Virus record (IMG/VR): IMGVR_UViG_3300020183_006727
DNA from: an uncultured virus (IMG/VR IMGVR_UViG_3300020183_006727)
Lineage: Duplodnaviria; Heunggongvirae; Uroviricota; Caudoviricetes
Length of the DNA: 64,000 bases
Reading direction: 5' to 3' (one strand)
The position numbers and the translations under genes were made by a program. Below, piece by piece: positions 1-20,781 of this stretch. How positions within the stretch are numbered: the first letter of the stretch is position 1; each line of letters begins with the position of its first letter. Under the pieces are notes generated by a model, which had not been told where the DNA came from, did no database searches, and worked only from the letters and a program-made list of their open reading frames with translations.

Positions 1-2
1 CC

Positions 3-425: not shown

Positions 426-458
426 ACCGGCGCGCAGCATTTTGATGACATAAACATG
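426..458 (+). promoter_or_regulatory. First copy of the ACCGGCGCGC-N20-ATG element (other copies start at 3230, 4983, 5479, 6312, 6876, 8380, 9356, 9911, 10673, 11383, 12488, 13023, 13659; off-register copies at 2448, 4245)
   Basis: Conserved 10-12-mer beginning exactly 30 nt before an in-frame ATG in 14 cases, counted by hand. Confidence 0.85.
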
Positions 459-1767: not shown

Positions 1768-1795
1768 AAATCAACAGATAAAGAAAGGCAAAGAA

Positions 1796-2026: not shown

Positions 2027-2100
2027 TTGCAGAATGTGTTGGGGCTTCGAGGTACAGTCTGTGCCTTGAGTTCCCCCACGCACCGCATCTATGTCCAGGC

Positions 2101-2442: not shown

Positions 2443-2491
2443 GATCAACCGGCGCGCAGGGTTTGACGCACCAATTTGGGGGGAAAGAATC

Positions 2492-2863: not shown

Positions 2864-3246
2864 TGGATCATAAAAGCAAATCTTCTGAACTCCATATACA
2901 GTTGGGCTTTAGTCTCTCTTCTACTTCGCCCGGCACGGTTTCGTGGCTGCTCCGTGGCAACGGATTCAGCGTGAGGTTGCCAGTGGATGGTTGGAAGCAG
3001 TCACTCTGGAGTTCTTTCAGTAACTGGTTCGACTCACATTGTGTGAGTATCGAATATCCCTTGCGCACCGAGATCCATTTCTGCGACCAGAAAATGAGCT
3101 TCTTGGTGCGTGGCGACGAAGACCTGGAGAACCTATGCCGATTCCTGAAAGATCCAATGCTGCTCATGTCGGAAGTTGATGACGAAGAAGGGACGACTGC
3201 CAGCCGGCTGCTGGCTGCCCTGAACAAGCACCGGCGCGCAGAATAG
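2863..3246 (+). CDS. Hypothetical protein
   Basis: Coupled to the previous ORF (TGATG). Confidence 0.6.
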   Translation: MDHKSKSSELHIQLGFSLSSTSPGTVSWLLRGNGFSVRLPVDGWKQSLWSSFSNWFDSHCVSIEYPLRTEIHFCDQKMSFLVRGDEDLENLCRFLKDPMLLMSEVDDEEGTTASRLLAALNKHRRAE

Positions 3247-3259
3247 GAGACACATAGAC

Positions 3260-3784
3260 ATGAGTACCACATTTGATGTTGACGAGTTCACCCGCAAGCG
3301 TCGGGAAGAGTTCGAGCGGATCGCCGATATTGTCGGAGACATCTCGCTCTCTTCATTCAAGCACTACAGTCGCATGTCGGAAGAGACTTACTGCTTCAAC
3401 ACCAAGGTCAGATACAAGGGCAAACTGATCGGGGATGCAAGCAATCGTGGCTGTGGAGGGATGACCGACTTCTACAACAAGGCGGGGGTTCAGGTTGATC
3501 TGTACGACCGTCTGAAGGATTCATGCACCGAACTTCGCATGGACGACATCATCGACCACCTCGTCAATGAGGAGATTGAGCGTAAAGAAAACGCCAAGAT
3601 GGAGCGTAGTTTCAACAAAATTGCAGTCACCGCACACGAGATCGGAATCACCGTCTTTTGGAGATCCAACGCAGATGGCAGCCGTGAGGAGATCACCTCT
3701 ATCAATACGAGGGATCAAGCGAGGGTTGACAAGGCTGTTGCTGATATGATTCAGCATGGTTGGCACATCATCCGTAAGGCATAA
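3260..3784 (+). CDS. Hypothetical phage protein
   Basis: ATG at motif+30; AGGAG; 'ASNRGCGG' motif. Confidence 0.75.
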   Translation: MSTTFDVDEFTRKRREEFERIADIVGDISLSSFKHYSRMSEETYCFNTKVRYKGKLIGDASNRGCGGMTDFYNKAGVQVDLYDRLKDSCTELRMDDIIDHLVNEEIERKENAKMERSFNKIAVTAHEIGITVFWRSNADGSREEITSINTRDQARVDKAVADMIQHGWHIIRKA

Positions 3785-3793
3785 GCACATCGC

Positions 3794-4276
3794 ATGGCAG
3801 GTCTGCCCCTCCAGCGTCTCGGAACGGGGCAGACCTCCATGCGAAAAAACACCATGTTTACATTCACCACATCCAAAGGGAAAAAGCTTCAGGAATCGGA
3901 CATCCTCAATGTCCTCAATGACGGCGCGCATGAACTTCATGCGACAGAGCTTGGGGTGAGGAAGATTTCACGACAAGTTGCGGAGATGATTGAACGGTCG
4001 CGGCTTGAGGAGGCGGGCGTACAGGGCAAGATCTTTCATGTTGCCACCTATCTTGGCGGTAACCGTGACATCCGAATCACCGCAGACGGCGGAGACCACT
4101 TTTGGGTGCGTTGGGATGACGAATCAGACACCTACATGGCCATGTCCACCCCTAGGTTCATCCCCGCCTACCCAGACCCGTCACGCATCCCGCCTGTTGA
4201 CGGCAGGGAGAACTTCCTGGCGGCGGAGGGATCGGGGAGCATTCACCGGCGCGCAGCTGATGGGGAGCAGGGGTGA
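3794..4276 (+). CDS. Hypothetical protein (start uncertain)
   Basis: ORF filling the gap in the array. Confidence 0.55.
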   Translation: MAGLPLQRLGTGQTSMRKNTMFTFTTSKGKKLQESDILNVLNDGAHELHATELGVRKISRQVAEMIERSRLEEAGVQGKIFHVATYLGGNRDIRITADGGDHFWVRWDDESDTYMAMSTPRFIPAYPDPSRIPPVDGRENFLAAEGSGSIHRRAADGEQG

Positions 4277-4277
4277 G

Positions 4278-4859: not shown

Positions 4860-4884
4860 ACCTGTAATACGAACCCCCGGAATG

Positions 4885-4927
4885 GACCCAGTGTAGAGTG
4901 CAGACTCCACTGGGTCTTTTGTTTTTT
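4885..4927 (+). terminator. Intrinsic terminator
   Basis: GACCCAGTG..GAGT-loop-ACTC-CACTGGGTC stem followed by TTTTGTTTTTT. Confidence 0.75.
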
Positions 4928-5012
4928 GTGCCAGAATGACCTCCTGATAAACTTCGAGTCCGGCTCGTTCGACGAAGTGTGAACCGGCGCGCAGAATGTT
5001 GAGAACATAGAC

Positions 5013-5477
5013 ATGAACCAAGAAGCAGGCGACCATCCTGGTGGTGGTGGTGGTCAAAACACTATCGACACCATCGTCCATACATCACAGGACTCCCGCA
5101 TCATCGACGCAGCCAGGGCGGCATCTATGCTCCTGTCCCAGCGTGAGACGGAGTTCACCGACCCCTACACCTGTCACGACCCCATTTTTGTGACGATCAT
5201 CCACGACCTGCTGATCCTTGCGACCATGATGGGGGTGGACGCAGATGAGATCATGAAAACAAGCATGAAGTGGTATCAGGACACCATGAAGGACGTGTGG
5301 GAGGATGAGATCACCGAGACATGGGCGGAACGCCGCCGCAAGTGGGCGGTCGAGGCCGCATCAGATTTCCACAGTCTCTACCACGACACAAAGGACCCCC
5401 TGCACCTGATGGCCTGCTTCGAACGGCTGGCCAACCGCGAGAAGAAAAACACGACGCTCGAGAAGACCCCAGTGTGA
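5013..5477 (+). CDS. Hypothetical protein
   Basis: ATG at motif+30. Confidence 0.7.
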   Translation: MNQEAGDHPGGGGGQNTIDTIVHTSQDSRIIDAARAASMLLSQRETEFTDPYTCHDPIFVTIIHDLLILATMMGVDADEIMKTSMKWYQDTMKDVWEDEITETWAERRRKWAVEAASDFHSLYHDTKDPLHLMACFERLANREKKNTTLEKTPV

Positions 5478-5508
5478 CACCGGCGCGCAGACGACAGAGG
5501 ATATGGAC

Positions 5509-5808
5509 ATGGCAAACAACAGCCATCTCAAGTTCGTCAAGTCGGGCGAGGTCTCCGTCGATTCGGGGCAGATCCTCCTGATCGACCCCTCCTACATCAC
5601 AGAATCGTTCCCCAACGGGGTTGGGTACCGTGCCCTCAACTTCAATCATGTGTGTCGTGTCACCCTCCGCGATTCAGGCTGTGGTGGGGTGGCGGGGCTT
5701 GGTTTCGCTACTTCGTCGGGTTACGGTGATGGGGTCTACCCCGTCTATGTTGCCCGTAGTGGGGGGCGCATCGCTTCCATTCGCATCGACTTCATCACGG
5801 AGGAATGA
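5509..5808 (+). CDS. DUF4241-like protein
   Basis: VDSGQ..DP.Y and SSGYGDGVYPVY motifs; ATG at motif+30. Confidence 0.6.
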   Translation: MANNSHLKFVKSGEVSVDSGQILLIDPSYITESFPNGVGYRALNFNHVCRVTLRDSGCGGVAGLGFATSSGYGDGVYPVYVARSGGRIASIRIDFITEE

Positions 5809-6242: not shown

Positions 6243-6341
6243 CAGCGCACAGCCACCGCTCCGCATCGCCTGACCGACAACCACCCACCGAGGCGTCACC
6301 TGCGGACACATACCGGCGCACAGAATCTTGAGGGCATGAAC

Positions 6342-6803
6342 ATGAAGAAGAAGATGGTTCTCATCGGCACGGATTGCACGGTCAATGTCGTGAATAACGA
6401 CGGTTATGACTCGCTCGTCGCGCACATCGGCGGATACATCGAAGCCGTGCAGATGGACGAACGCCATCTTGCCTACATCGATGAGGAGGGCAAGCTGAAG
6501 AGGCTGCCCCCCAATCCCGTCGCCACCCTCATGTGGCGCATCTGGCATCCCCATGTGACGGACATCCTCTGCGGCCCATGCCTCATCGTTGGCAGGGTTG
6601 ATCCCAAGACAGGGGAGGTTGATGGGGAGGATCACGAACACGACCAGACCATTCTGACCCTTGCCAGGAGCATCGCATCACAGATGCGGATGCGGGTGGA
6701 TGGGCAGGACACCTGCGTGGCCTGTAACAGGGGCATCGACGGGGCAGGGGTGCGCTCTGCGGTTGGAACCCTCGGCGTTATCCTCTGCGAGGATTGTGCG
6801 TAA
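6342..6803 (+). CDS. DUF3846-like protein with C-terminal CxxC...CxxC
   Basis: IGGYIE...DEEGKLKRLPPN..AT...D.L.GP; ATG at motif+30. Confidence 0.7.
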   Translation: MKKKMVLIGTDCTVNVVNNDGYDSLVAHIGGYIEAVQMDERHLAYIDEEGKLKRLPPNPVATLMWRIWHPHVTDILCGPCLIVGRVDPKTGEVDGEDHEHDQTILTLARSIASQMRMRVDGQDTCVACNRGIDGAGVRSAVGTLGVILCEDCA

Positions 6804-6905
6804 AAGACCTCGACGAAGACAATTCGACTTGAAAACCTCTCCGCCGAAGGTCACACCGGCGCCGCCGGAGGTCACACCGGCGCGCAGCACCGCGACCACA
6901 TAGGC

Positions 6906-7385
6906 ATGGGACAATACCACTACATCACCAACCTCACCAAGCGTCAATACATCAATCCGCACCAGATCGGCTCTGGTCTCAAGATCATGGAACAGGTCGG
7001 GTGGGAGGCTTCCCCCTCCACCGCCCTCTTCCTCCTCCTCGCCTGTTCCAACGGGCGCGGAGGCGGGGATGCGGGACACCACCCACTTGTCGGTCACTGG
7101 GCTGGCGACCAGATCGCCGTGATTGGTGATTACTCCACCCCAACCGACATCCCTGGACATGATGCGGCCGCCATATACCAGTCCATCATGGGCATGGGGG
7201 ACAGGCTTCTCGACCTGATTCACGGCTCGGAGTGGTGCAACATCTCCCCGCAGGTCCGCGAGATGATGACCGCCGCATTGGGCGCACGGTATTCCCTCAA
7301 TGAGTACCAGCAGGGGAGAGATCTCACCCTCGACACCGCAGGTTGTATTTTCGTTGAGATATCCGCTGGGACCGACCGCGAATAG
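6906..7385 (+). CDS. Conserved hypothetical phage protein
   Basis: MGQYH...NL.K...GLK..E ... G.WAGD.I..IGDY; ATG at motif+30. Confidence 0.75.
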   Translation: MGQYHYITNLTKRQYINPHQIGSGLKIMEQVGWEASPSTALFLLLACSNGRGGGDAGHHPLVGHWAGDQIAVIGDYSTPTDIPGHDAAAIYQSIMGMGDRLLDLIHGSEWCNISPQVREMMTAALGARYSLNEYQQGRDLTLDTAGCIFVEISAGTDRE

Positions 7386-7472
7386 TCCACAGTCCACAGA
7401 AAGGTAAACCATGAAACGCAAAATCAAACAAATGACCTATGGCGAATTGCAGCAGTTCGAAGGAGGTGCAGC

Positions 7473-7871
7473 GTGAATCTTCCCTACCCTCTGTATTTCC
7501 TCGTTCCGCATCAAACGCCGCCATCTGTCGTCGTTGATCTGCCCGACGACGCGCACGATTATCATTGCGTCATCAAATGCACAACGACCAAACAATTGCT
7601 GCGGCTCGCGCACCCTCTGCGATACGACGACCAACTGCGTCACCAGGGCGCAGAGATCGCAGTGTTGGCGCGGCGGGAACTGCGATTGCAAGGACGGCAT
7701 CAACCACTGCAATACAAAATCGCAGAAGTTCGCGGCGATACGGGTGATTGGGATGTTGTTGCAGAGTTTGAGGCTCGCAACGATGATGCGGCAAACGAGT
7801 ACGCAGAGGAAAACTACGCACATCTCGATTGGTATGTGCTCGATGAGAACAACATGAATATCAACGGGTGA
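7473..7871 (+). CDS. Hypothetical protein
   Basis: GTG with GGAGG upstream; overlaps a 21-codon ORF at 7411-7476. Confidence 0.55.
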   Translation: MNLPYPLYFLVPHQTPPSVVVDLPDDAHDYHCVIKCTTTKQLLRLAHPLRYDDQLRHQGAEIAVLARRELRLQGRHQPLQYKIAEVRGDTGDWDVVAEFEARNDDAANEYAEENYAHLDWYVLDENNMNING

Positions 7872-7935
7872 CGGCCCCGAGCCCTGCGCCGACTCGCTCG
7901 GCGCATCGCTCGCGGTCGGCAACGTGCCGCCCTCG

Positions 7936-7967
7936 CACAGTCCACAGTCCACAGTCCACAGTCCACA
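7936..7967 (+). repeat. 7-bp tandem repeat (AGTCCAC)x4; two copies also at 7384-7397
   Basis: Direct reading; both runs lie just upstream of an RBS and ATG. Confidence 0.85.
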
Positions 7968-7982
7968 ACAGAAGGGCAAACT

Positions 7983-8147
7983 ATGAGATACCCGCGTTCA
8001 TGCAAGAAGGACAAGCCTGACCTTTCTAGACTCCGTGAGGAGGGTTACAAGATCACCCTTTGGCACGGCGAAGGAGACACCCTGTATATTGCCAGACGCA
8101 GAAGTGGCAAGAACTTGACCACCGTGCCGAAGCCCGTGCGAACCTGA
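7983..8147 (+). CDS. Small hypothetical protein (54 aa)
   Basis: GAAGGG then ATG; translated by hand as MRYPRSCKKDKPDLSRLREEG... Confidence 0.4.
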   Translation: MRYPRSCKKDKPDLSRLREEGYKITLWHGEGDTLYIARRRSGKNLTTVPKPVRT

Positions 8148-8230
8148 TCGCAGGTCAGGTACGGGGGTGGGGCATCTCCATCACATCTGGTGAGGCAGGA
8201 GGGACAACCTGCGACGGGCAACCCGTCTAG
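8126..8230 (+). pseudogene. Remnant 3' half of a paralog of 10703-10912
   Basis: EARANLIAG...ISITSGEAGGTTCDG versus EARANLIAG...ISIISVEAGGCTRDG; no in-frame ATG; same downstream hairpin. Confidence 0.7.
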
Positions 8231-8255
8231 CCATAACCCATGCTGGCATCCCGAC

Positions 8256-8290
8256 ACCGTCGCTCCGAAAGGGGCGGCGGTTGTCGTTTC
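8256..8290 (+). terminator. GC hairpin with GAAA loop and TGTCGTTTC tail (near-identical copy at 10941-10975)
   Basis: ACCGYCGCTCC-GAAA-GGGGCGGCGGT. Confidence 0.65.
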
Positions 8291-8409
8291 TGGGGATATG
8301 AATATATCGTTACCTACAAGTACTGGTAGTATCCGTACCAGTTCGAACACTAATCCCAGTAGCACGGACCAGAGCCTCAACCGGCGCGCAGGGTTTGGAG
8401 GACGCAAGC

Positions 8410-8961
8410 ATGGAAACATCACACACACCATCAATCAGTATCGGAAACATCATCGTTTCGGATGAGGAACTCGCGGAGGCAGGCAAAGCCTTCATCAAGA
8501 GCCTCAACATCCCAGAGGGTCCCCATAACATCGAGATGGACTTCCACATGAAAGCGGAAGTCAACAAGGGGGTCGCATACGAGCAGTCCATGTGGCAGTC
8601 GGCAAAGCCCGAACAACTGCTGCTCCTCGCTGTCGCCATGAGTGGTGCAGTCGGTGATGTCCTCACCAATATCGCCGCACTTGGATACGAGGAATATGTC
8701 TCCCGTGTGAAGGAGATCGAGTCCCGTGCATCCCGTCTATCAGGGAAGAAGGGGGCAGAGGTGCTTGCTGCGGCAGAGGCAGCAGAGGCGAAACATCCCT
8801 CAAAGCGCACCGCCGAGGATGCCGAGCTTGTCCTGTGCCTGAAGGCGTACCGTCAGCAGGGTCGCATCGACTCCGTGATCGAAACACTCCGTCAGTCAAC
8901 CAAGACGCTCAAGTCGGGTCGCACCGATATTCCCGCCATCGCTGTGAAGATGATCCGCTAG
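8410..8961 (+). CDS. Hypothetical protein
   Basis: ATG at motif+30, GGAGG. Confidence 0.75.
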   Translation: METSHTPSISIGNIIVSDEELAEAGKAFIKSLNIPEGPHNIEMDFHMKAEVNKGVAYEQSMWQSAKPEQLLLLAVAMSGAVGDVLTNIAALGYEEYVSRVKEIESRASRLSGKKGAEVLAAAEAAEAKHPSKRTAEDAELVLCLKAYRQQGRIDSVIETLRQSTKTLKSGRTDIPAIAVKMIR

Positions 8962-9015
8962 AGGATCACGCACCGCAACATCACAAACTGCACAATAGCA
9001 ACGGAGAGATGGCAC

Positions 9016-9303
9016 ATGAAAACCATCACTTTCGACAGTTGGATGGACACCTTCAACCCAATCCTTGGCAGAGGACAGGACTGCGGGAGCGTTGATGGCG
9101 TGGGAATCGGCTTCGGCTCCTACTTTTCTGCACGGCAGATGGCGCAGAGACTTGGTCTGCTTGACGGTGAACCGCATATTTGGACGATCCATCACAACGA
9201 TGAGGATGATTGTTGGCTCATCAGCCCAGGCCCTGAGTGCGTCAATGTCATTGGATACGTCGTCACCCGCAAACCGTGTGGGGATTTGATGGTCATTTGG
9301 TAG
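9016..9303 (+). CDS. Hypothetical phage protein, probable paralog of 1429-1767
   Basis: GGAGAG RBS; shared pattern with 1429-1767. Confidence 0.7.
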   Translation: MKTITFDSWMDTFNPILGRGQDCGSVDGVGIGFGSYFSARQMAQRLGLLDGEPHIWTIHHNDEDDCWLISPGPECVNVIGYVVTRKPCGDLMVIW

Positions 9304-9385
9304 CATCCGTACTCATGTCGCACTGCTTCGAGACACGAGGCGCCTGCGGGCACGTACCGGCGCGCCGAGTCTGGAGGATATGAGC

Positions 9386-9814
9386 ATGGATGACCACACC
9401 GAAGAAGAAAGCATCATCACCGATCCCCGCGATGATTGGAACCTTGGCATCATGGCCTGCTTCCACCGTCGTTACAATCTGGGGGACAGGGTGACCGACC
9501 TGCGTGGCGGGACCATCACCGTTGAGGAGGCACGGCGCATCGAGGCGACGAACACCTGCCCCGTCGCTATCGGCGTGTGGGAGCAGTGCGTCGTGCTGCC
9601 CCTCTATCTCTATGACCATAGCGGCATCACCATGAATACCACGGGCTTTGAGTGTCGCTGGGATTCTGGACAAATCGGCATCATCTACGCACCTTACAGC
9701 CGCATCCGAGAGTGCTACGGAGTCAAGCGTGTGACCGCCAAAATGATCGAACGGACGAAGGCAGCACTGCTTGCCGAAGTGAATGACTATGACTCTTGGC
9801 TGCTGGCCGCATGA
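9386..9814 (+). CDS. Conserved hypothetical phage/MGE protein
   Basis: LPLYLYDHSGITM...F.C.WDSGQ.G motif; ATG at motif+30. Confidence 0.75.
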   Translation: MDDHTEEESIITDPRDDWNLGIMACFHRRYNLGDRVTDLRGGTITVEEARRIEATNTCPVAIGVWEQCVVLPLYLYDHSGITMNTTGFECRWDSGQIGIIYAPYSRIRECYGVKRVTAKMIERTKAALLAEVNDYDSWLLAA

Positions 9815-9940
9815 ACACAAGCATGGAAACATTCATCACAGAGATGATGAACCGAGATGAACTCAACCCGATGGTGAAACTGGCAAGATTGGCGGACTGA
9901 CCAACACGCCACCGGCGCGCCGAGTCTGGAGGATATGAGC

Positions 9941-10147
9941 ATGGATGACCACACCATGAGTACATACCTCCTAAAGTACTTCAACGACGGCGAATCAGAT
10001 GCCATCGGTCTGCCTTTGGTAGAATGGTTCATCGTTGAAGCAGATGGCCTAGACCACGCGGTAGAGCAACTTATGAATGCTTACCCCGAAGCAAACTTGG
10101 TCGTAGGATACAAATGTGTTCCTGTGACCCCAGTCATTCAAGGATGA
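9941..10147 (+). CDS. Hypothetical protein sharing its 45-nt leader and start with the 9386 gene
   Basis: ATG at motif+30. Confidence 0.6.
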   Translation: MDDHTMSTYLLKYFNDGESDAIGLPLVEWFIVEADGLDHAVEQLMNAYPEANLVVGYKCVPVTPVIQG

Positions 10148-10165
10148 CCGTTGGAGGACTGTTGC

Positions 10166-10645
10166 ATGACTGAACCCGAACAACCTTTCTCATCACGCCT
10201 GTCGTCGCCGCAACGCGCCGACATCCTCAATCGCCTCACCATCGAACGCAAACGGGCTATTGACGCACTCTTGGCCGATTGCCTTGAAGATCGTATGGCG
10301 GCCACGCTGAAATACGACCTTGAGGTGGCTGCACGGGTGACGCAACGATCACAACTGGAGAGGATTGGCTATTCGTTTCCTTCCCACGAATGTGCAGCAG
10401 CGAAGCACCCTGTGGGGGCTAACTCATGTGACATCGGGTGGCTTCCAAACACCGCATTGGTCAACGCCCTTGCCGAGTTGAATGTGTTCGTTGTGAATAC
10501 AGGGGGGATCGACAATGTGACTCTGTATCAGCGATTGATTACAACCCTTTCAGATGTCATCCCCGACCTTCCCCCATCCGATGATGTCAAAGAATATCTG
10601 GATATGAATGGAACGAATGAAGATCCACGATTCACGAAGGCTTGA
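10166..10645 (+). CDS. Hypothetical protein
   Basis: GGAGG RBS. Confidence 0.7.
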   Translation: MTEPEQPFSSRLSSPQRADILNRLTIERKRAIDALLADCLEDRMAATLKYDLEVAARVTQRSQLERIGYSFPSHECAAAKHPVGANSCDIGWLPNTALVNALAELNVFVVNTGGIDNVTLYQRLITTLSDVIPDLPPSDDVKEYLDMNGTNEDPRFTKA

Positions 10646-10702
10646 CGTCGGCCTCCTCCAGATGGAATGTCAACCGGCGCGCATGGGCTGGATGACTGTC
10701 AC

Positions 10703-10912
10703 ATGACCACACACATCGCCACCCTTGAATCGGCGCACTTCACCTTCACGGCTGCCGCACCGTCCAAGGTCGAGGCCCGTGCGAATCTGATTGCAGGTCT
10801 GGAACGGCACAGCGAACAGTACCGACTCCCCGATAGGTGGTACGAGGAGGATGACATCTCCATCATCTCCGTGGAGGCGGGGGGCTGCACCCGCGATGGG
10901 TCGAACATCTGA
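10703..10912 (+). CDS. Hypothetical protein
   Basis: ATG at motif+30; remnant paralog at 8126. Confidence 0.7.
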   Translation: MTTHIATLESAHFTFTAAAPSKVEARANLIAGLERHSEQYRLPDRWYEEDDISIISVEAGGCTRDGSNI

Positions 10913-11150
10913 CCAAAAGCCAACGCTCTGGCACATCAACACCGCCGCTCCGAAAGGGGCGGCGGTTGTCGTTTCTGGTGATGAGATCAAAAATGAACAC
11001 GGTACTAGAACTGATGGACACCATCGAGGGACCTGCGGGCGTGAACCGGCGCGCAGCGCACCACCCACTGCGCGCCGGTCGTCCACTCCCAAGGCCACCT
11101 GGCGAACAACTGTTCGTCTTGTGACCATCAAATAATCTGGTTTGGGGGTC

Positions 11151-11194
11151 TTGACAAACCGTCACCACCGATGTAAACCCTTGGGTTTACATCG
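11151..11194 (+). promoter_or_regulatory. Sigma70-like promoter overlapped by a 26-bp palindrome (operator-like)
   Basis: TTGACA-N17-TAAACC; CGATGTAAACCC-TT-GGGTTTACATCG at 11169-11194. Confidence 0.45.
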
Positions 11195-11412
11195 CCATTG
11201 ACGGTAGCCCTGATTCAACCCACCCACCGCACCACCGACCCACTGCGCACCTGTGGCGATGCGGGCTTTGCCTTCGGTAACACCGAGCTTGACCTTGACA
11301 GACCGTCAGTCCCGATGTCATCGCCAATGACTGATTCACCTCCTGCCACCACCTGGCTGCCACCACCTGGCAGACCTGATGCTCCGGCGCGCAACGGATG
11401 GGGGATGTGATT

Positions 11413-11721
11413 ATGGAACTGATGACCTCTGAAATCACGAAGGTGATACCCGAGCTCGGCGGACAGGAAGGTAAGGGTATGGATGCGGTCGTCTATGTAA
11501 AGTGGTTCAACCCCACGGGCGGTGAGACATGGTGGATCACCGAATACGACCAGAAGACAAAAGTTGCTTTTGGCTATGTGACTGGCATGACCGAGGACGA
11601 ATGGGGCTACATCAGCCTCAAAGAAATATCAAGCGTCCGCGTCCGCTATGGACTCGGCATCGAACGCGACCTCGGATTCACCCCAAAAACCCTGGGTGAG
11701 TGTCTGCGCAAGCGCACTTGA
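11413..11721 (+). CDS. DUF2958 family protein (copy 1)
   Basis: VK.FNPTG..TWWITEYD...FGYV.G...EWGYISL.E....GLGIERDL.F; ATG at motif+30. Confidence 0.8.
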   Translation: MELMTSEITKVIPELGGQEGKGMDAVVYVKWFNPTGGETWWITEYDQKTKVAFGYVTGMTEDEWGYISLKEISSVRVRYGLGIERDLGFTPKTLGECLRKRT

Positions 11722-11740
11722 CAAATGCTTCTTTTCCATC

Positions 11741-11778
11741 GCAGCGGCCGTCCCTTCGGGGGCGGCTGCTGTCGTTTC
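11741..11778 (+). terminator. GC hairpin with TTCG loop and TGTCGTTTC tail (copy at 14017-14053)
   Basis: GCAGC(G)GCCGTCCC-TTCG-GGGGCGGCTGC after each DUF2958 gene. Confidence 0.65.
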
Positions 11779-12517
11779 GGATGAACAGACGCACCGCCAG
11801 CCGCGCGCCGGTTGACCAGAAAAACAACTGGGGACCAACAAGGTGCTTGTTGATGGCGGAGAGGAACTCGGCCCTCTGGGGACCTGCGGGCTGGCACCGG
11901 CGCGCTGCGCACCGCCAGCCGCGCGCCGGTTGACCAACCTTCCGGCCAGGATTTTTTGGGGCGGAGAATCTTCGTGACGAGAACTGACACACCATCAACG
12001 ACTCCAAAATATTGAGGTTTCCGCACAACCACGATGGGAAACTCGATCTGATGAATCTGACCAAACCTCCACGAAGATTGGGAGGGGTTCGATTGGGGTG
12101 ACATGGCACAGGTGCATGGCTGGCAAATCATCCGTCAGACACAGCACGTTGGGAGGAATACATCAACAGATCACCGGCGCGCCACACGCCGTCGGCCGCC
12201 CACCGCGTGCAGATGGGCTGGGGTTACAGACACCATGCGAGGTGCGGGTCTTCAGGAGGACACGAATAGAAAGGACGAGCTGGAACAAAACGGAACCGGC
12301 GCGCAACCCGTCGCGTGTGGCGTGCCTGTCATCTTGCCCTCTGCTGTCTTTGGTTGGCATCAAGAGGTGGTCTTCTGGCGTGCCACACACCGCAAGAGGC
12401 GCACCGCGTTCATCAGGCAGCACACCGCCACCACCACAACAACACAGATCCCGACAGGAACTCGGCCCCCTGGGGACCAGCAGCGTGACCGGCGCGCAGG
12501 GGGTGGGGTACATGGTT

Positions 12518-12721
12518 ATGGAGACATCACAAGCAGAAACCGAACGGATGGTGGACAGCCAACCGAAGCCGACACAGAAACAACTCGACATCCGCGAAGA
12601 AATGGAGGAGGCACTCAGTCGCCTGCGTGCTGATCGTGCGCTTTCTGGTCACCACCTTGACCTCATCCTCCGCAGTCCGAAAGGGATACTCACCCTTGCG
12701 CGGATGGGGCTTTCAGGTTGA
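12518..12721 (+). CDS. Small hypothetical protein (paralog A)
   Basis: ATG at motif+30; EALSRLRA...LILRSP.GIL.LA.MG shared with 13053. Confidence 0.7.
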   Translation: METSQAETERMVDSQPKPTQKQLDIREEMEEALSRLRADRALSGHHLDLILRSPKGILTLARMGLSG

Positions 12722-12810
12722 TGGGAGGCGGGGCGGCGGGGAGACGGGGAGGCGGAGCGTAGGGGGGGTCGGGGAGGCGGAGTGGCGGGAAGGGATGCTG
12801 AAACTTCATG

Positions 12811-12838
12811 AACCTCTGCCGTCTGGCAGGGGTTTTTT
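12811..12838 (+). terminator. Intrinsic terminator
   Basis: AACCTCTGCC-GTCT-GGCAGGGGTT followed by TTTT. Confidence 0.65.
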
Positions 12839-13052
12839 CATATGGACATGGGCGGCGGAACCCACATGGAGAACTCGGCCCTGGGGACCTGCGTGCGGTA
12901 ACCGGCGCGCTGCGCACCGCAAGAGGCACACCGCGTTCATCAGGCAGCACACCGCCACCACCACAACAACACAGATCCCGACAGGAACTCGGCCCTGGGA
13001 AACCGGTTACCTGCCCGCGTGAACCGGCGCGCAGGGGGTGGGGGACATGGTC

Positions 13053-13262
13053 ATGGAGACACCACAAGCAGCAACCGAACGGATGGTGGACAACCAACCG
13101 CAGCCGACACGGGGAAAGCCCAACATGAATGAAGAGCGGAAGGAGGCACTCAGTCGCCTGCGTGCAGGGGAACCGCTGTCCAGTCGTCAACTCAACCTCA
13201 TCCTCCGCAGTCCAAACGGGATACTCGCCCTTGCACAGATGGGGTGGTTCACCCCAGCCTAG
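13053..13262 (+). CDS. Small hypothetical protein (paralog B)
   Basis: ATG at motif+30. Confidence 0.7.
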   Translation: METPQAATERMVDNQPQPTRGKPNMNEERKEALSRLRAGEPLSSRQLNLILRSPNGILALAQMGWFTPA

Positions 13263-13688
13263 AAGATCAGAGGAGTTGGATTGGGGCGACATGGATCTCT
13301 GCCATCGGGCAGGGGTCCATGTCTGTTTATATGGCATGGGTGTATGGCTGACAACTCATCCGCTCACACATGGCATGGTGTTGACAACTCACCATTGATA
13401 CACATCAAGTTGAAGAAACATGGCTGCCGACGACGGCTCGCCGGCGCGCGTCGCACCACCCCCTGCGCGCCGGTGTCGCCATAATAAAAACAACAAAGCT
13501 ATGGTAAGGACGTTGCTGCCGAAACCGGCGCGCTGCGCACCACCCACTGCGCGCCGGTGTCGCACCGGAGGCCTTGGGCGCGAAGCATTTGTTGTTGCTT
13601 ATGATTGTGCGGGCAACCCACATCTGCTTTGGCGGGTGAGAAGTTTTAGCAAACATCAACCGGCGCGCTGCGGATGGGGGACATGATT

Positions 13689-13997
13689 ATGAAACTGATG
13701 ACCTCCGAAATCAAGAGAAAAATCCCCGCATTGCGGGCGCAAGAGGGGCTAGGTTGGGATGCGGTTGTCCATGTCAAGTTGTTTGACCCAACGGGTTCCG
13801 CAACATGGTGGATCACCGAATACGACCCCGAGGAGGAAATCGCCTTCGGATACGTGACGGGTATGGTCGAGGACGAATGGGGCTATGTCAGCCTCAAAGA
13901 AATATCAAGCGTCCGCGTCCGCTATGGACTCGGCATCGAACGCGACCTCAGCCACAGACCCAAACCCCTGAGTGAGTGCCTGCGCAAGCACACTTGA
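13689..13997 (+). CDS. DUF2958 family protein (copy 2)
   Basis: Paralog of 11413-11721; ATG at motif+30. Confidence 0.8.
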   Translation: MKLMTSEIKRKIPALRAQEGLGWDAVVHVKLFDPTGSATWWITEYDPEEEIAFGYVTGMVEDEWGYVSLKEISSVRVRYGLGIERDLSHRPKPLSECLRKHT

Positions 13998-14428
13998 TAG
14001 GGGGGATATTTTCACGGCAGCGCCGTCCCTTCGGGGGCGGCTGCTGTCGTTTCGGGGGTACACGCATCCCCCTGCGCGCCGGTTGATGTAGACTAAACAG
14101 ATTCAGCCAGATGTCATCGCTGTCTGATCGGGGAGACGGAGACTCTAACCACTTGTGGTGTGCAGTCCACCCTCCAGAACCCCGCACCGGCGCGCTGCAC
14201 GCATCCACATGCGCGCCGGTTGCCCGTCGCCGAAAAGAGTTAGCAAGATCTTGTTGTCTGATCGGAGAGACGGAGACTCTAACCACCTGCCGCGTGCAGT
14301 CCACACCCGACATCGCTGACCTGCTCACCAGGACCCCGCACCGGCGCGCTGCACGCATCCACATGCGCGCCGGTCGGGCTATCGTAACAACTGGGTGATC
14401 GAGGGAACTCGCGGCTTCAGCATGACTC

Positions 14429-14566
14429 CATCTCTGGGTAGCGTGGGGCGACATCTCTGGGTAGCGTGGGGCGACATCTGTGGGTAGCGTGGGGCGACAT
14501 CTGTGGGTAGCGTGGGGCGACATCTGTGGGTAGCGTGGGGCGACATCTGTGGGTAGCGTGGGGCGA
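14429..14566 (+). repeat. Tandem repeat, 6 x 23 bp CATCT(C/G)TGGGTAGCGTGGGGCGA
   Basis: Six contiguous copies with no spacers. Confidence 0.97.
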
Positions 14567-15196
14567 CGGGGGATCCGTCTGTTGGAGTCACCCAACCACA
14601 ATCATTGATGATCAGGAACTCCTACGTATCGGTCGACCGGCGCGCCACACCACACCACATGCGCGCCGGTGCATAACCCGGGTACAGAAACTCAAGCTGC
14701 ACGAGTCAGCATAATGCTCTGCTGACCATCTGCTCGAGCGGACGGGCCAACTTGACCCGCCTCCGGCGCGCTGCACGCATCCACATGCGCGCCGGTGTGA
14801 ACACCGGCCGGTGTTGCACTCCAAGCACCTTCTCGTTCTTCGCAACATGTCATGGGTGCAGCGTGCTGCACGCATCCACATGCGCGCCGGTGTGAACACC
14901 GGCCGGTGTTGCACCGTCTCTTTCTTCGCAACATGTCATGGGTGCATACCCCCACCCCGGGGGGGTCTTATGGCAGTTTGATTCCCCCCACCGGGGATAC
15001 CTTAGGCCCAAGCGCCCTCATCTTCATTTTCCCTGGGACGGGGATACCTTTTGTGAACTGGGGGGTAAGATATTTGGCAACCTGTCGGGACGTGGGTGGT
15101 ATGGGTGGGGCTGGAGTCGTAATTTTGAAAAAAGGGGATACCTTAGCTTGGAGGTAAGAATAGATAATTCTCATCAGCACAAAGGAGGATTCATGT

Positions 15197-15679
15197 ATGA
15201 TATACAGGCTTTCAAAGAACGACTGGGTTGAAATAGGGAAGAAAACTGGCTGGCTGAAGACGGCTTATATTCATCATGGTTATGATGGGGGTAAATTGAT
15301 GAGGGCGCTGGAAGGGGGAGATTTAAAATCTTTCGTTGATTCCATAGAAGAAGAGAACGCTCAAATGGCAGCAGATACCCTCCATTTAGAGAGAGACATT
15401 TACGCTTATTCTTTAGATCAAGGTTTCACCAACGGTGACACGGACACGCATGTGCCATCTCAAAAAGAAACGATCCTGGTTGGATTCATAGAGAAGTTAT
15501 CCAAGATTCTCGAGATGATGAAGGACAAGTTCCCGAATATCAAGACAAAAGACCCCACAGAGGCCATATTGGATATTCTCAGCCATGAGGGGGAAAGAGG
15601 AGCTCATAGAGATGAGAATGCGACTGGAGATCCTCTCAGCGATGAGGCCGTCCGCGAGGCGGCCGAACGACATCAATGA
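15197..15679 (+). CDS. Hypothetical protein with LSKNDWVEIGKKTGWLKTA leader
   Basis: AGGAGG RBS; shared leader motif. Confidence 0.8.
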   Translation: MIYRLSKNDWVEIGKKTGWLKTAYIHHGYDGGKLMRALEGGDLKSFVDSIEEENAQMAADTLHLERDIYAYSLDQGFTNGDTDTHVPSQKETILVGFIEKLSKILEMMKDKFPNIKTKDPTEAILDILSHEGERGAHRDENATGDPLSDEAVREAAERHQ

Positions 15680-15845
15680 ATAGAGGACTTCATCAATCGC
15701 CCTCTTCAGACAGAAGAATAGCACATGCTCACACAGACTTTCCTAGCCATAGTGTTGCGCGTTGCTGAGAAGGCTTGTTGGCTCAAAAAGGCTGAAAGAA
15801 AATTAGTCGCACGGCTCTCTGCCTGCGCCCACAATGGCGTGTAGC

Positions 15846-16784
15846 ATGTGGTACAAGAGGGCAAAAGACACCCTGCACCTTTTAGAGTCCAAGCGGACTG
15901 TTGACCTTGTGGCTCTCAGAGGAAAAACCGGGGGACAAGAAACACTTCTGGTCCTCCGTTTCGGGGGGGGCAGAGGGATGAACTGGTGGGGCGCTGCGAA
16001 TGACAATCCTGAGCAGCAGCGTGCCAAGCACCCATACAGGTCACTGCTTGAGGCGTGGGACAGGTACAACGGTGACGGTGCAGAGATTCAGACTCCAGAG
16101 GATCTTGCGGACACTGTCGAGTCTTTGCTTGAAGATGACCGTGCACCAGCAGAGTTGGACGAGGCAGTTCGCAAGTTCCGCGAGGATCAGACCTACGACA
16201 TCGAGGTCAAGGGCCGTGGCGAGATGGACACGGCTGGCGAGCAGCTTGAGATTGCGGTGCAGAAAGCAGCCGAGACCATCAGACAAGAGATGGGGGGCGC
16301 GACTCCCACTCCAGGGGGGAGCGGTGCGGAAATCGATGCTGGCAGGTTTACAGGGTACACGGACAGAGAGGTTGGGGAGATGTTGGATCACGCATACATG
16401 GCTGGCGCACCCCAGGGGATCATCGACATGCTTGAGACGGAGTTGGACCTGCGCGAGAGGGAAGAAGACGACCCGTCCGGCGGAGATGATGAGCCCAACA
16501 GGAGCAACATGGGTCTTGGTGTTGAAGAACTGATGCGGCAAGCAGCGTTGCGGGGGAGAAATGAGAACATGTCCCCCGCACAGCTGGGGGCGGAAATCCG
16601 CAGAGACGGCGACTTTGCCGTGATGACAGGTGCAATTCCGCTTGCGACAGTCAGTGATGCAGAACTTGGGCAGGAGGCCTACGACGCGTTGCAGGCGCAC
16701 GAGGATCGCATCTCCGCAATCCGGAGGAGGATGTCAACAGATGCCGGGCGGCGGCCCTCTACCCGTGCTGGAGAGGACACCTGA
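15846..16784 (+). CDS. Acidic hypothetical protein with MWYKRA leader; first ~42 codons duplicated in the Nudix gene
   Basis: Long ORF; nt repeat of 15845-15969 at 16785-16909. Confidence 0.75.
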   Translation: MWYKRAKDTLHLLESKRTVDLVALRGKTGGQETLLVLRFGGGRGMNWWGAANDNPEQQRAKHPYRSLLEAWDRYNGDGAEIQTPEDLADTVESLLEDDRAPAELDEAVRKFREDQTYDIEVKGRGEMDTAGEQLEIAVQKAAETIRQEMGGATPTPGGSGAEIDAGRFTGYTDREVGEMLDHAYMAGAPQGIIDMLETELDLREREEDDPSGGDDEPNRSNMGLGVEELMRQAALRGRNENMSPAQLGAEIRRDGDFAVMTGAIPLATVSDAELGQEAYDALQAHEDRISAIRRRMSTDAGRRPSTRAGEDT

Positions 16785-16785
16785 C

Positions 16786-17628
16786 ATGTGGTACAAGAGG
16801 GCAAAAGACACCCTGCACCTTTTGGGGGTCAATCCAACTGTTGACCTTGTGGCTCTCAGAGGAAAAACCGGGGGAGAAGAAATACTTCTGGTTCTCCGCT
16901 CCGGGGGGGCTGTGGAGGGCGGCAGGTGGGCCCTCCCAGGTGGCTTCATCAACACAGACGCACAGAGGGGTGAGAGGTGGAAAGAGGGTCGTGAATCTCC
17001 GAGAGAGGCAGCGGTCCGTGAAACGTTGGAAGAAACAGGTGTATCCGTTGACCCTGGAGACCTCATTGAGGTGGGGGTGTTTGAGGGTGGAGGCAGAGAC
17101 CCACGCGACTCCCCAGATTCATGGACCAAATCCCATGCATTTGCCGTTCGCGTTGACGGAAGCCCCCGGGCAAGGGGCGGGGACGACGCATCAGACGCAG
17201 AGTGGTTTCCGTTGGAGGAACTGCCCACCATGGCATTTGACCACAGGGAGATCGTTTCTGCGGCTCTCAGGAAGCTTGGGAGGCGTGAGAAGACCGCAGC
17301 ACGAGTTGCAGGAGCAGCACGAGAGGCAGGGTCTGGTGACCATCTCACCCTTGGTGACCTTGTCACCCTGAAGGTGGGGATGAAGGACGCCGACTTCTGG
17401 ATCATCAGGCGCGGGAGCCCCGACAGGGTGGGAACCCCCGTGAGGGATTGGGGGTCAGAGTTGATCGGTGTGAAGGTGGAGAGAACCGACCTGCTCCTGC
17501 CCGACTACCTCTTCCACATGATCATGCACATCGCGAACACTGGTTATTTCCGCCGCTTTTCAACGGGAACGGTTGGGATAAAGCACATAACCATATCCGA
17601 TGTGGCCAACATTCCAATCGGAAGGTGA
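16786..17628 (+). CDS. Nudix hydrolase (ADP-ribose pyrophosphatase/NrtR-like N-terminus) fused to a C-terminal phage domain
   Basis: WALPGGF, Nudix box GRESPREAAVRETLEETG, RDPR, GGDDA, MAFDH; C-terminal DADFWIIRRGS domain after KTA. Confidence 0.85.
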   Translation: MWYKRAKDTLHLLGVNPTVDLVALRGKTGGEEILLVLRSGGAVEGGRWALPGGFINTDAQRGERWKEGRESPREAAVRETLEETGVSVDPGDLIEVGVFEGGGRDPRDSPDSWTKSHAFAVRVDGSPRARGGDDASDAEWFPLEELPTMAFDHREIVSAALRKLGRREKTAARVAGAAREAGSGDHLTLGDLVTLKVGMKDADFWIIRRGSPDRVGTPVRDWGSELIGVKVERTDLLLPDYLFHMIMHIANTGYFRRFSTGTVGIKHITISDVANIPIGR

Positions 17629-17761
17629 AGTTTGGTGTGGAGTGGAATGAAGGTTCTTTCCTCTTTTAAAGGTATCTAAATGTGGACATAAATCGATGAT
17701 ACATCAACATGAACAAATTTGCAACAATTTCCGCAACAGGACAGAAAGAGGATAAGAAGGC

Positions 17762-18199
17762 ATGTTTTCATCTGAACTTATAAGCCTGGTTGGTGGTGGA
17801 CTTGTGGGGTTCCTCTTCAGGTACATGGCGCAGAAGAGCGCCGACCAGAAGGAGATGTTCAACCAACTGATTCAGGCGAACATACAGACAAGAGAAAATC
17901 AAGACAAAGCAGCAGCGAGGGTTCCAATCGACACGGGCAGGGTGGTTCGTCAGATTATTGTGCTGACGATCCTCTTTGGGGCGTTCGCAGCCCCGTTCAT
18001 CCTCCCATTCTTTGGGATTCCAACGTTCGTCGAAGTCGATGTGAAGAATCCAGAAGGCCTCTTTGGCCTCATCCCGGCAACGGTCAAGAAAGCATTCGTT
18101 GAGGTCAATGGGTTTTTCTGGACATCAGAAAACCGCGAAGTGCTCCTCAGCATTGTTGGCTTCTACTTCGGCACTGCCGCAGCAACAACCAAAAAGTAA
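17762..18199 (+). CDS. Membrane protein (holin-like candidate)
   Basis: 2-3 hydrophobic segments; C-terminal IVGFYFG. Confidence 0.55.
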   Translation: MFSSELISLVGGGLVGFLFRYMAQKSADQKEMFNQLIQANIQTRENQDKAAARVPIDTGRVVRQIIVLTILFGAFAAPFILPFFGIPTFVEVDVKNPEGLFGLIPATVKKAFVEVNGFFWTSENREVLLSIVGFYFGTAAATTKK

Positions 18200-18213
18200 T
18201 GAGGCGCAGAGAA

Positions 18214-18552
18214 ATGAAATTCATCACAAAGATTCCATTAATCATGTTGGGAATATGCTTCGCAGCAATATGCTTCGCAGCAATATGCTTCGCAGCAGGC
18301 TGCTCCAGTGACCCGGTCATCATCCCCAACAAGACGACAGACAACGCAGTGATGCTGGAGTTGAAAACAAAACTCGCAGAACCGGGCGTCCACACATCCA
18401 GCTACGGATGGCTCTTCTGGTACGCACCACTGGCAACCATCCTCCTCATGTGGGGGTGGAGAAACCTTATCAAAAAACCACTCGACTGCATCGAAAAAGA
18501 GCCTGATTCGTTGAAGATCCAAACCAAGATCGACGACAACCCAGAGACCTGA
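18214..18552 (+). CDS. Putative lipoprotein with an additional C-proximal TM segment
   Basis: Lipobox-like FAAGC; (ICFAA)x3 from a 15-bp repeat at 18252-18296; YGWLFWYAPLATILLMWGW. Confidence 0.6.
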   Translation: MKFITKIPLIMLGICFAAICFAAICFAAGCSSDPVIIPNKTTDNAVMLELKTKLAEPGVHTSSYGWLFWYAPLATILLMWGWRNLIKKPLDCIEKEPDSLKIQTKIDDNPET

Positions 18553-18729
18553 TCGACCCCTGAGGTTCGGGAAGAAATGCGGCTCCAAACCCCCAGAGGC
18601 GGTGTCCCTGCTGGGGATGACAACTTTCTAGTTCCGTTTGTGTGACGGGTTATTTACAGCCCTTGGGTGCAGCACCTGTCTCTAGAGGTGTGTTCTCCAG
18701 TGCCATGTAAGATGTCGTGTGGAGACACC

Positions 18730-19458: not shown

Positions 19459-19600
19459 AGGGGGATGCACCCCCATCTCAAAACCAACCCAGAGTTTTCG
19501 TATATAACCCCCCGGAAATATATTTTCTAAAAAAAACCCTGCGCCCCCAGAGAGGGGGTCTGTAAAAAAAAATTTACGTGGGAGACGGTCGGCGGATATT

Positions 19601-19699
19601 CTAGAACCCGAACATCTGCGCGATGATCATCCCCAAAATGAAGCTTGCTGTTGCAGTTATGAACTTGGTTGCAACAGTATTGAAATCATCCTCATCCAT
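19601..19699 (-). CDS. 32-aa single-TM peptide
   Basis: GGGAGG RBS; MDEDDFNTVATKFITATASFILGMIIAQMFGF. Confidence 0.5.
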   Translation of the reverse strand: MDEDDFNTVATKFITATASFILGMIIAQMFGF

Positions 19700-19709
19700 G
19701 TGAACCTCC

Positions 19710-20777: not shown

Positions 20778-20781
20778 GTGC

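Follow-up and report, generated by a model that had tools for sequence, protein, structure and literature searches.

The DNA considered here is a stretch of 64,000 nucleotides (the window) from an uncultured virus of the Caudoviricetes (IMG/VR record IMGVR_UViG_3300020183_006727), and our subject is a short GC-rich motif within it that stands ahead of small genes at a fixed distance and that also, facing its own inverted copy, builds a set of 35-bp palindromes. The window is a fragment of an uncultured freshwater jumbo phage. Its nearest virus records, G001 (70.6 kb) and G002 (130 kb), have CheckV completeness values of 16% and 29%, and the genome should therefore measure several hundred kb; 20 sequencing runs labelled lake water or freshwater metagenome contain 92-97% of the region's sampled words, and a megablast search of positions 10000-16000 against phage records gave no match. 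Bases 1-15,000 hold small genes on the + strand only and form a hypervariable island of at least 15 kb, with a G+C content of 0.52-0.59 against 0.41-0.52 for most of the remaining window (overall island composition C 0.28, G 0.29). Pfam and PHROGs searches of the 27 open reading frames (ORFs) of the island matched DUF2958 twice, DUF3846, DUF4262 and DUF4241, and most of the remainder is unannotated. From about 15.2 kb, the first gene beginning at 15197, the window becomes a core that encodes glucose-6-phosphate dehydrogenase, superoxide dismutase, ribonucleotide reductase, ThyX, a C5 DNA methylase, a sugar-nucleotide and glycosyltransferase cluster, a sigma factor (57087-57983), a Tad3-like protein and two tRNAs.

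The palindromes occupy the last 4 kb of the island. A first-pass annotation, made from the letters alone, had placed eight of them there, and a search for ACCGGCGCGC-N15-GCGCGCCGGT with up to two mismatches recovers all eight at those coordinates among nine matches in the window, against 0.00 in 100 shuffles, so that none is expected by chance. Six are perfect, all read here on the + strand: 11045..11079, where pairing reaches 12 bp through AG...CT (predicted at -25.7 kcal/mol as RNA and -18.0 as DNA), 11896..11930, 13524..13558, 14186..14220, 14340..14374, which has the same spacer as its predecessor and flanking pairs that lengthen the stem, and 14636..14670. Two differ at a single, outermost base: 13440..13474 begins with G, a would-be G-U pair in + strand RNA, and 14762..14796 begins with T. 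The last two along the sequence, 14636..14670 and 14762..14796, are shared with G001 and G002. The ninth match, 12295..12329, is a decayed copy with two mismatches in its right arm that the first-pass annotation had not listed. Distances between palindromes are irregular (84-1628 nt), yet the spacer between the arms is 15 nt in 8/8 of the window palindromes. The three lone right half-sites that had also been described lie at 11803, 14074 and 14882.

The 10-mer that forms the arms is an island sequence. Counting exact matches to it or its complement, there are 34 copies in the window against 0.09 expected, all within 426-14891, and none in the remaining 49 kb; nor was it found beyond the island boundary in G001 or G002. 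A search that tolerates one mismatch finds 27 left-hand copies, every one on the + strand, as well as 11 right-hand copies: eight in palindromes and three alone. An ATG begins exactly 20 nt past the motif at 14 of the 27 left-hand sites, that is, at 14 of the 19 that are not part of a palindrome, and it opens ORFs of 60-183 codons. These headers (10-mer, 20 nt, ATG; + strand throughout) precede a 60-aa gene (426..458), a 174-aa gene (3230..3262), a 154-aa gene (4983..5015, directly after a TGA), a 99-aa DUF4241-like gene (5479..5511, 1 nt past the preceding stop codon), a 153-aa DUF3846 gene (6312..6344, with one mismatch in the motif), genes of 159 aa (6876..6908), 183 aa (8380..8412), 142 aa (9356..9388), 68 aa (9911..9943), 69 aa (10673..10705) and 67 aa (12488..12520), a 69-aa paralogue (13023..13055), and both DUF2958 genes. 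The other non-palindromic left copies comprise two with the next ATG at +34 (2448..2457) and +23 (4245..4254) and three without a gene, among them 12173..12182, which also has no right arm, and 12901..12910, which is followed by the first 10 nt of a spacer and no right arm.

The motif is oriented with transcription and sits in very short intergenic gaps. No sequence upstream of it is conserved, because it frequently touches or overlaps the end of the gene before it. Downstream, the consensus of the 15 distinct sites with 20-nt spacing, drawn from window and relatives alike, runs through AG, a GA.GAC box and a conserved stretch to the ATG, so the header is better regarded as a module of about 33 nt than as a 10-mer. 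The GA.GAC box, which resembles a Shine-Dalgarno sequence, lies between motif and ATG, and the bases directly after the motif are AG in 24 of 30 distinct headers. The 20-nt spacing recurs in the related metagenome loci L014, L012 and L066 and in the related virus records G004 and G005. One motif thus serves both as gene header and as the two palindrome arms, as the first-pass annotation had proposed. Its further statement that no gene follows the palindromes stands only in part. No ATG occurs at header distance from any of them, but the headers of the DUF2958 genes follow 100 nt after the palindrome at 13524 (header at 13659) and 303 nt after that at 11045.

The 18 distinct spacers collected from the window and relatives are C/A-rich on the + strand (C 0.50, A 0.23, G 0.16, T 0.10), in agreement with what had been noticed before. 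Reverse-complemented, 11 of the 18 start with AG and four with AT. When they are aligned from the motif with real header leaders, their mean best identity is 9.83/15, compared with 7.49 +/- 0.29 for shuffles (0/2000 reach 9.83) and 7.33 for the spacers read forward. A palindrome thus consists of a + strand motif and, opposite it, an inverted header truncated 15 nt into the leader, and the spacer is C/A-rich because it is the inverted copy of a G-rich leader, an origin that the earlier reading had missed. The 13-15 nt before each lone right half likewise resemble a palindrome spacer: all three lone halves are the same inverted unit, spacer plus arm, with the facing motif absent. We saw no match of spacers to the headers of their own lineage in particular.

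This origin suggests a regulatory reading, in which spacer plus right arm, carried in + strand transcripts either in a hairpin with an exposed C-rich loop or as a free right unit, would act as an antisense RNA that pairs with the tag, and in part with the G-rich ribosome-binding leader, of header mRNAs in cis or in trans and blocks their translation or triggers their cleavage. The arms are indeed perfect complements of the headers, the spacer is on average complementary to the best-matching leader at 9.83 of its 15 positions, all such units lie on the gene strand, and the lone right units are free of any hairpin. Yet spacers do not co-vary with the headers of their own lineage, pairing beyond the arms is poor by eye for the first DUF2958 cassette, terminators lie upstream of the units, and most header genes are 1-10 kb from any of them. 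We consider an antisense function of this kind decidedly unlikely.

A palindrome scan of metagenomes returned at least 130 stretches, from which 124 loci were taken; 20 of these resemble the window. Among the matches listed, loci unlike the window are single palindromes in unrelated GC-rich DNA, with a strongly skewed spacer in 18/105. Of the window-like loci, L058 is 99.96% identical over window positions 1045-21078 and L026 98.65% over 14341-20725, while L018 is a rearranged variant with 98-99.5% identity; four diverged lineages (about 70-85% identity) appear among the matches listed, namely L014/L046/L049/L128, L012/L082/L092, L066 and L093/L102. In viral contigs, the palindrome scan yielded only G002, which is the same phage, and L006, an unrelated GC-rich contig whose palindrome looks like an ordinary hairpin. 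The header scan of viral contigs gave mostly chance matches, the only true relatives being L156 (G004) and L198 (G005). G004 (18.9 kb) carries 13 core copies, all on one strand, with no inverted copy and no palindrome; the ATG lies at +20 in 6/13 and, by eye, at +21 in three more. It aligns with window 426-3601 at 72% identity and then holds different genes between shared flanks. Searches for relatives with a different tag, using the first core protein (L254, 46% identity) and one island protein (16 loci), found neither the motif nor an over-represented 10-mer of header type, and in a full-text literature search for the motif strings the matches listed concerned unrelated subjects, cloning primers included.

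The first-pass annotation had singled out two weak points, spacer length in relatives and misassembly. Across 18 related loci we found 19 distinct spacers of 15 nt and one of 16 nt, hence 15 nt in 19/20 distinct copies, and no other left-right spacing within 0-60 nt. The junction of island and core is spanned by the separate contigs L058 and L026 and by the diverged L014, so the arrangement is no assembly artefact. In alignments of the window with L014 and G004 (71-83% identity), 155/160 motif columns are identical, against 31/45 spacer columns and 4578/6102 (0.75) of all others. Arms vary at the outermost base only: four copies have an uncompensated or G-T outer pair, and a compensated outer T...A pair occurs in one lineage (L012, L082, L092) and counts as a single event. 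Where orthologous palindromes can be compared, perfect arms and the 15-nt length are kept in flanks that are 75-83% identical, and the spacers change. This selective conservation is observed directly and bears on whether the palindromes do anything at all. They might be non-functional by-products, in that the self-complementary parts of the header, GCGCGC and CCGG, favour template switching or inverted duplication in DNA prone to recombination, and shared recent ancestry or gene conversion alone lets them persist. Duplications and chimeras abound here, decaying copies exist (window 12295 and L066 1246), and G004 does have a long header array without palindromes. But perfect arms and constant length persist across lineages as the spacers change, all 18 distinct spacers have the same composition and orientation, and L093 and L102 carry five to six palindromes within about 0.7 kb. 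Because of this conservation across lineages, an origin purely as by-products is highly unlikely.

The same conservation also suits a different explanation, a duplex-DNA operator. Here a protein of phage or host would read the 10-12-mer; single sites would behave like stoperators or activator sites, and the palindromes would be head-to-head double sites that silence or insulate the end of the island. Near-invariant arms, drifting spacers and a spacing fixed at 15 nt are the usual signature of protein half-sites, and on this account we regard the operator as a serious rival. The strict orientation of the motif with transcription in very short gaps, as is said of the stoperators of mycobacteriophage L5, and the fact that the header works without a partner fit it as well. 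A duplex site, however, does not require what all 18 distinct spacers keep, namely strand asymmetry and a reverse complement that resembles a header, and the 27 island ORFs contain, by Pfam and PHROGs, no candidate binding protein, only DUFs and one weak match resembling an RNA polymerase alpha C-terminal domain. Moreover, the arm centres are 25 bp apart, which is 2.4 helical turns, so the half-sites would not lie on the same face of the helix. The spacer and the distance between centres speak against a simple dimer, and the dimer-binding or looping role raised by the first-pass annotation would have to account for that strand-asymmetric spacer. We judge the operator unlikely on balance, while keeping it in view.

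Evidence of another sort comes from genes that lie inside the element. Both DUF2958 genes (11413-11721 and 13689-13997) are enclosed in a split palindrome. The first cassette (11383..11812, + strand) consists of a left 10-mer with T at base 1, a 20-nt leader, the gene, a terminator-like hairpin, a spacer remnant and the right arm; its closing spacer and arm are the lone unit 11788..11812. The second (13659..14083, + strand) has the same layout and is closed by the lone unit 14059..14083, and the order of header, gene, terminator-like hairpin, spacer and right arm is repeated in L014 and L012. These hairpins were seen by eye and do not appear in the list of the terminator scan. The function of DUF2958 was not treated in papers found by full-text literature search. 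Homology between window 13659-14086 and L014 2051-2478 starts and stops at the two arms. The right end of the DUF2958 cassette in L014 carries the downstream flank of a palindrome that is empty in the window (11896), and L014 also retains a full palindrome with the upstream flank of that same site. Of the several roles that had been floated for the palindromes, that of an empty cassette site is hence the one that gains: the DUF2958 genes are bracketed by a left 10-mer and a spacer plus right arm twice in the window and again in L014 and L012.

Rearrangement at the motif is not confined to DUF2958. Blocks of homology between relatives and the window tend to stop at the motif: 35 of 66 internal BLAST segment ends fall within 25 nt of a motif core, where only 11% of the island lies that close. 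In L018 the palindromes are chimeric, taking the spacer from one window site and the downstream flank from another, and in L066 a terminator-palindrome module is repeated on either side of two genes. Contigs from four lake runs show alternative sequence beside 9954, 10083, 10149, 10939 and 13524, the first three being loose ends in the slot of the 68-aa gene headed at 9911. We take the filled and empty sites and the chimeras as direct observations. At L014 2664-2692 a right arm runs straight into a left arm. The result is a 20-bp perfect palindrome of opposite polarity; with two partial motif copies ahead of it, it has the look of a junction between two cassettes. A module of about 125 nt is also duplicated in the window (8173-8297 and 10855-10982), where it places the same intrinsic terminator after two different genes; the single backward joint in the contigs, from 10982 to 9000, is explained by this duplication. 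Neither ends of molecules nor circles appear in these short Logan contigs.

As RNA the palindromes are predicted to fold at -20.9 to -26.2 kcal/mol (z -1.7 to -3.5) and as DNA at -14.3 to -18.1 kcal/mol, with a stem of 10-12 bp and a loop of 11-15 nt; folding is stronger on the complementary strand, where the G/T-rich loop contributes further pairs. An Rfam scan of 1-20000 gave nothing at the gathering score and six sub-threshold matches, none overlapping a palindrome, and a tRNA scan had no hit at any palindrome. Four strong intrinsic terminators were located, at 8256, 10941 (10941-10966), 12810 and 13288 (13288-13323); the palindrome at 11045 lies 79 nt past the second of these and that at 13440 lies 117 nt past the last, and several palindromes stand 59-100 nt ahead of the next header. 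Two of the palindromes and one left 10-mer are preceded on the + strand by a conserved module, GAACT...CCTGCG..., at 11008..11044 (palindrome 11045), 11864..11895 (palindrome 11896) and 12871..12900 (10-mer 12901), and the module is found ahead of L014 palindromes 1253, 1957 and 3490 as well. It contains GGAAC-like and CGT-like boxes about 17 nt apart, a spacing that we take to recall the promoter geometry of extracytoplasmic function (ECF) sigma factors; if that likeness holds, transcripts would start at the motif. A long imperfect hairpin at 11158-11205, upstream of a DUF2958 header and with TTGACA before it, is a separate structure: it has an 11-bp core stem (GATGTAAACCC..GGGTTTACATC) with outer CCGTCA/TGACGG arms and a predicted energy as DNA of -18.2 kcal/mol (z -4.3), and it is kept in three lineages (also at about L014 1340-1390 and in L012).

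Our tentative preference, which we put somewhat short of an even chance, is that the palindromes form hairpins that mark boundaries in a hyperplastic island and double as its recombination joints, in function closest to the PeSL (promoter early stem-loop) elements of T4-type phages and to the start-associated sequences (SAS) and extended start-associated sequences (ESAS) of cluster K mycobacteriophages, though a member of neither family. In single-stranded nucleic acid of the gene strand, most probably RNA, a palindrome would fold into 10-12 G-C-rich pairs with an unstructured loop of 11-15 nt. We infer that such hairpins form in vivo and act on transcription or RNA: they may punctuate or insulate transcription units, and they would keep their copy of the header paired and so inactive. 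Most palindromes stand after an intrinsic terminator and ahead of the next transcription unit. In DNA, the invariant 10-12-mers could serve as short repeats for the gain, loss, duplication and exchange of cassettes by a putative recombination mechanism, and the empty palindrome and the arm-bracketed gene would then be two states of one site.

Several observations weigh against this explanation. The 12 motif copies in 426-10673 and all 13 in G004 have no inverted partner, and since this holds for most headers, the header must work without any hairpin. Since arm changes are limited to the outermost base, covariation speaks neither for pairing nor against it. The palindromes are not canonical intrinsic terminators, because none is followed by a T run, and the terminators upstream of several of them may end transcripts before they are reached. 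A constant loop of 15 nt is unneeded for a purely thermodynamic hairpin and would rather suit a protein that measures distance. Finally, the 35 of 66 segment ends near a motif core overstate true breakpoints because BLAST ends are biased towards conserved motifs.

Alternatively, the motif could be a phage-specific promoter. The 10-mer plus AG would be read by a phage polymerase or sigma factor and give a 5' leader of about 20 nt, and the palindromes would be convergent promoters yielding short antisense RNAs or serving as polymerase sinks. An invariant, oriented motif right before many genes with no conserved -35 region, purines as the next bases (AG in most distinct headers, as above) and a sigma factor encoded in the window itself are what such a promoter would show. 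Against it, nine of the ten bases beside the presumed start are G or C, which would make melting hard, and the motif does not occur outside the island, either in the other 49 kb or in G001 and G002 past the boundary. The fixed distance to the ATG is not needed by a promoter, and two promoters firing at each other across 15 bp have no obvious use. Searches of G001, G002 and G004 for T7-like or multisubunit polymerase domains were negative, which counts for little because these are fragments and the PF00940 control matched nothing. A promoter thus seems quite unlikely to us.

The position of the palindromes at the inner end of the island raises one further possibility, a cis-acting region for DNA transactions at the boundary of island and core, such as an injection stop of the T5 type or a packaging or replication site. 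The palindromes, the tandem repeat and other repeats of 14.4-15.2 kb would be bound there as DNA enters, is packaged or replicates. This zone is untranslated and dense in palindromes and direct repeats, and between the palindromes at 14340 and 14636 it contains a perfect tandem repeat of six 23-nt units (14429..14567), all at the inner end of small genes of early type. The tandem repeat is possibly iteron-like. G001, G002 and L016 break inside it and L018 ends there too, probably as assembly breaks at the repeat. In 4/4 lake runs, at similar GC, unique contigs from the island (9.4-13.9 kb) are covered 1.5-1.9 times as deeply as contigs from 14.9-16.8 kb, as a terminal repeat would produce, the figures (window 9000-17000) being word depths of contigs and not copy numbers; but the step may also reflect a strain mixture, a second copy or co-occurring strains that share the island. 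Boxes for DnaA (up to one mismatch) number 0 in 1-15,200 and 14 in the window, which is the chance level, all beyond 20 kb. Heading of genes at a fixed distance and DUF2958 genes in split palindromes are left unexplained, and we hold a DNA-transaction site to be very unlikely.

The comparison with T5 can be made more closely. In a preprint (10.1101/866236), Repeat Region 3, the injection stop, is described as untranslated, with palindromes and with inverted and multi-copy direct repeats, at the inner end of the small early genes; the same text reports paired DnaA boxes and a position within a proven terminal repeat. The repeat-rich untranslated zone is common to both phages, whereas the T5 repeats are not gene headers and DnaA boxes are lacking from 1-15,200 here. 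Two further repeats lie in the zone. A 95-nt direct repeat occurs in two copies (87% identical, within 14766-14946), each with a 16-bp perfect palindrome, AACACCGGCCGGTGTT, right after the right arm; the third lone spacer and right arm (14867..14891, + strand), which has no left arm, lies in the second copy. Three copies of GGGGATACCTT follow at about 14990-15160, shortly before the first core gene.

Among known systems, the PeSL elements of T4-type phages are the nearest. According to two papers (PMC2839356; PMC4122927), they are short composite repeats that separate small ORFans in hyperplastic regions and reach from the stop codon of the gene before to the Shine-Dalgarno sequence and start of the gene after; a stable stem-loop is part of them, indels and replacements between related phages occur at the repeats, and terminator activity and mini-circles have been shown (PMC2839356; PMC4122927). 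The island resembles these regions in its small, mostly unannotated genes and in its rearrangements at motifs, as seen in the L018 chimeras, the relocated L014 cassette and the swapped cassettes of G004. It differs in that the sigma-70 -35 and -10 elements, a defining feature of PeSL, occur at no header or palindrome here: a consensus scan of 1-16000 gave eight promoter-like sites against 8.5 expected, all of them elsewhere. The stem-loop is present in the eight palindromes and absent from the 14 header-only sites, which have no partner arm. Here, moreover, a GC-rich 10-12-mer is conserved at a fixed 20 nt from the ATG, and the stem-loop consists of the motif and its inverted copy with a fixed 15-nt loop, at the distal island end only. 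Compared with PeSL, both the constant distance from motif to ATG and a palindrome derived from the motif itself are new.

The SAS of cluster K reportedly include the ribosome-binding site, a few bases from the start codon. The motif described here ends 20 nt before the ATG, with the Shine-Dalgarno-like box in between. According to the cluster K report (PMC3203893), SAS are asymmetric short repeats (13 bp) in one orientation at the translation starts of some non-structural genes, about half of them with an adjacent inverted repeat, and the role of SAS and ESAS was left open there as of 2011. The inverted repeats of ESAS are described in that text as 17 bp long, mostly with spacers of 4-13 bp, of a sequence other than SAS and upstream of it (PMC3203893). 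In our phage, by contrast, the header motif supplies both arms, the spacer is constant (15 nt in 19/20), and the palindromes have no gene at header distance. A third parallel is provided by the stoperators of L5, a cluster A mycobacteriophage. These are said to be numerous asymmetric sites of about 13 bp that point with transcription and sit near stop codons in short gaps between genes, and reportedly occur genome-wide and are defined by repressor binding. We share with them an oriented motif in short intergenic gaps, but ours is confined to the island, and we know of no stoperators that form fixed-spacer palindromes.

Three other comparisons suggested by the first-pass annotation fit poorly. 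The attC sites of integrons are imperfect palindromes of about 57-141 bp with GTTRRRY-type cores that bound promoterless cassettes in a one-directional array, together with an integrase. Empty and filled states are a point of likeness, but the palindromes here are 35 bp, a gene lies inside a split palindrome rather than beside a whole one, no GTTRRRY-type cores occur in the palindromes, and Pfam found no integrase or recombinase among the 67 window ORFs scanned. Repetitive extragenic palindromic (REP) elements have a hairpin with a GTAG-type head and an associated tyrosine transposase (RAYT); there is no GTAG head at the palindromes and no Y1 transposase or RAYT among the window ORFs, which represent only a fragment of the genome. 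N4 promoter hairpins have a stem of 5-7 bp and a 3-nt loop and are used by a virion RNA polymerase, compared with 10-12 bp and 11-15 nt here, and no polymerase was found in G001, G002 or G004, which are fragments. CRISPR-like, protelomerase and transposon readings were discarded by eye, given the irregular spacing of the palindromes, the asymmetric spacer and the lack of target-site duplication at palindrome or cassette flanks.

A bolder synthesis would be self-complementary tagging: every accessory gene of an entry-side island would bear a 12-nt tag, always equally far from the start codon, and inverted copies 15 nt away would be docking or switch hairpins, acting as antisense or structural off-switches for tagged messages and as landing sites for the gain and loss of promoterless cassettes, an integron-like arrangement without attC and without a recognisable integrase. 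We offer this as a speculation that is quite improbable as a whole. Hypervariable islands of small genes are presumed to be the phage store of host-takeover and anti-defence functions, and their regulation and reshuffling are understood for very few phages. A tag of 10-12 letters that is near-invariant amid 25% divergence provides a sequence handle for the accessory gene set of an uncultured giant phage lineage, and a concrete case in which to test whether such repeats at gene starts work through RNA, DNA or a protein. It may also offer a natural, standardised module of expression and insertion for phage engineering. Even if the palindromes are only a PeSL-like shuffling joint, the principle would extend beyond T4-type phages, to a motif without a recognisable host promoter.

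Some further features of the window deserve mention. A 106-aa ORF (1706-2023) in the most conserved block of the island weakly matches the C-terminal domain of RNA polymerase alpha (E 1.5e-5, 25.0 bits, cut-off 23.8). A G-rich degenerate repeat, GGGAGGCG, is present in about nine copies at 12723-12793, right after the 67-aa gene, and none follows the paralogue at 13053. The ORF at 28664-29161 matches the Tad3 family of Thoeris inhibitors (E 1.3e-12), which puts an anti-defence gene outside the header island. The core also carries auxiliary metabolic genes: glucose-6-phosphate dehydrogenase beside a 2-hydroxyacid dehydrogenase on the - strand (19710-22143), a cluster for dTDP-sugar-type biosynthesis and glycosyltransferases (30365-38697), and an Fe/Mn superoxide dismutase (52792-53418).

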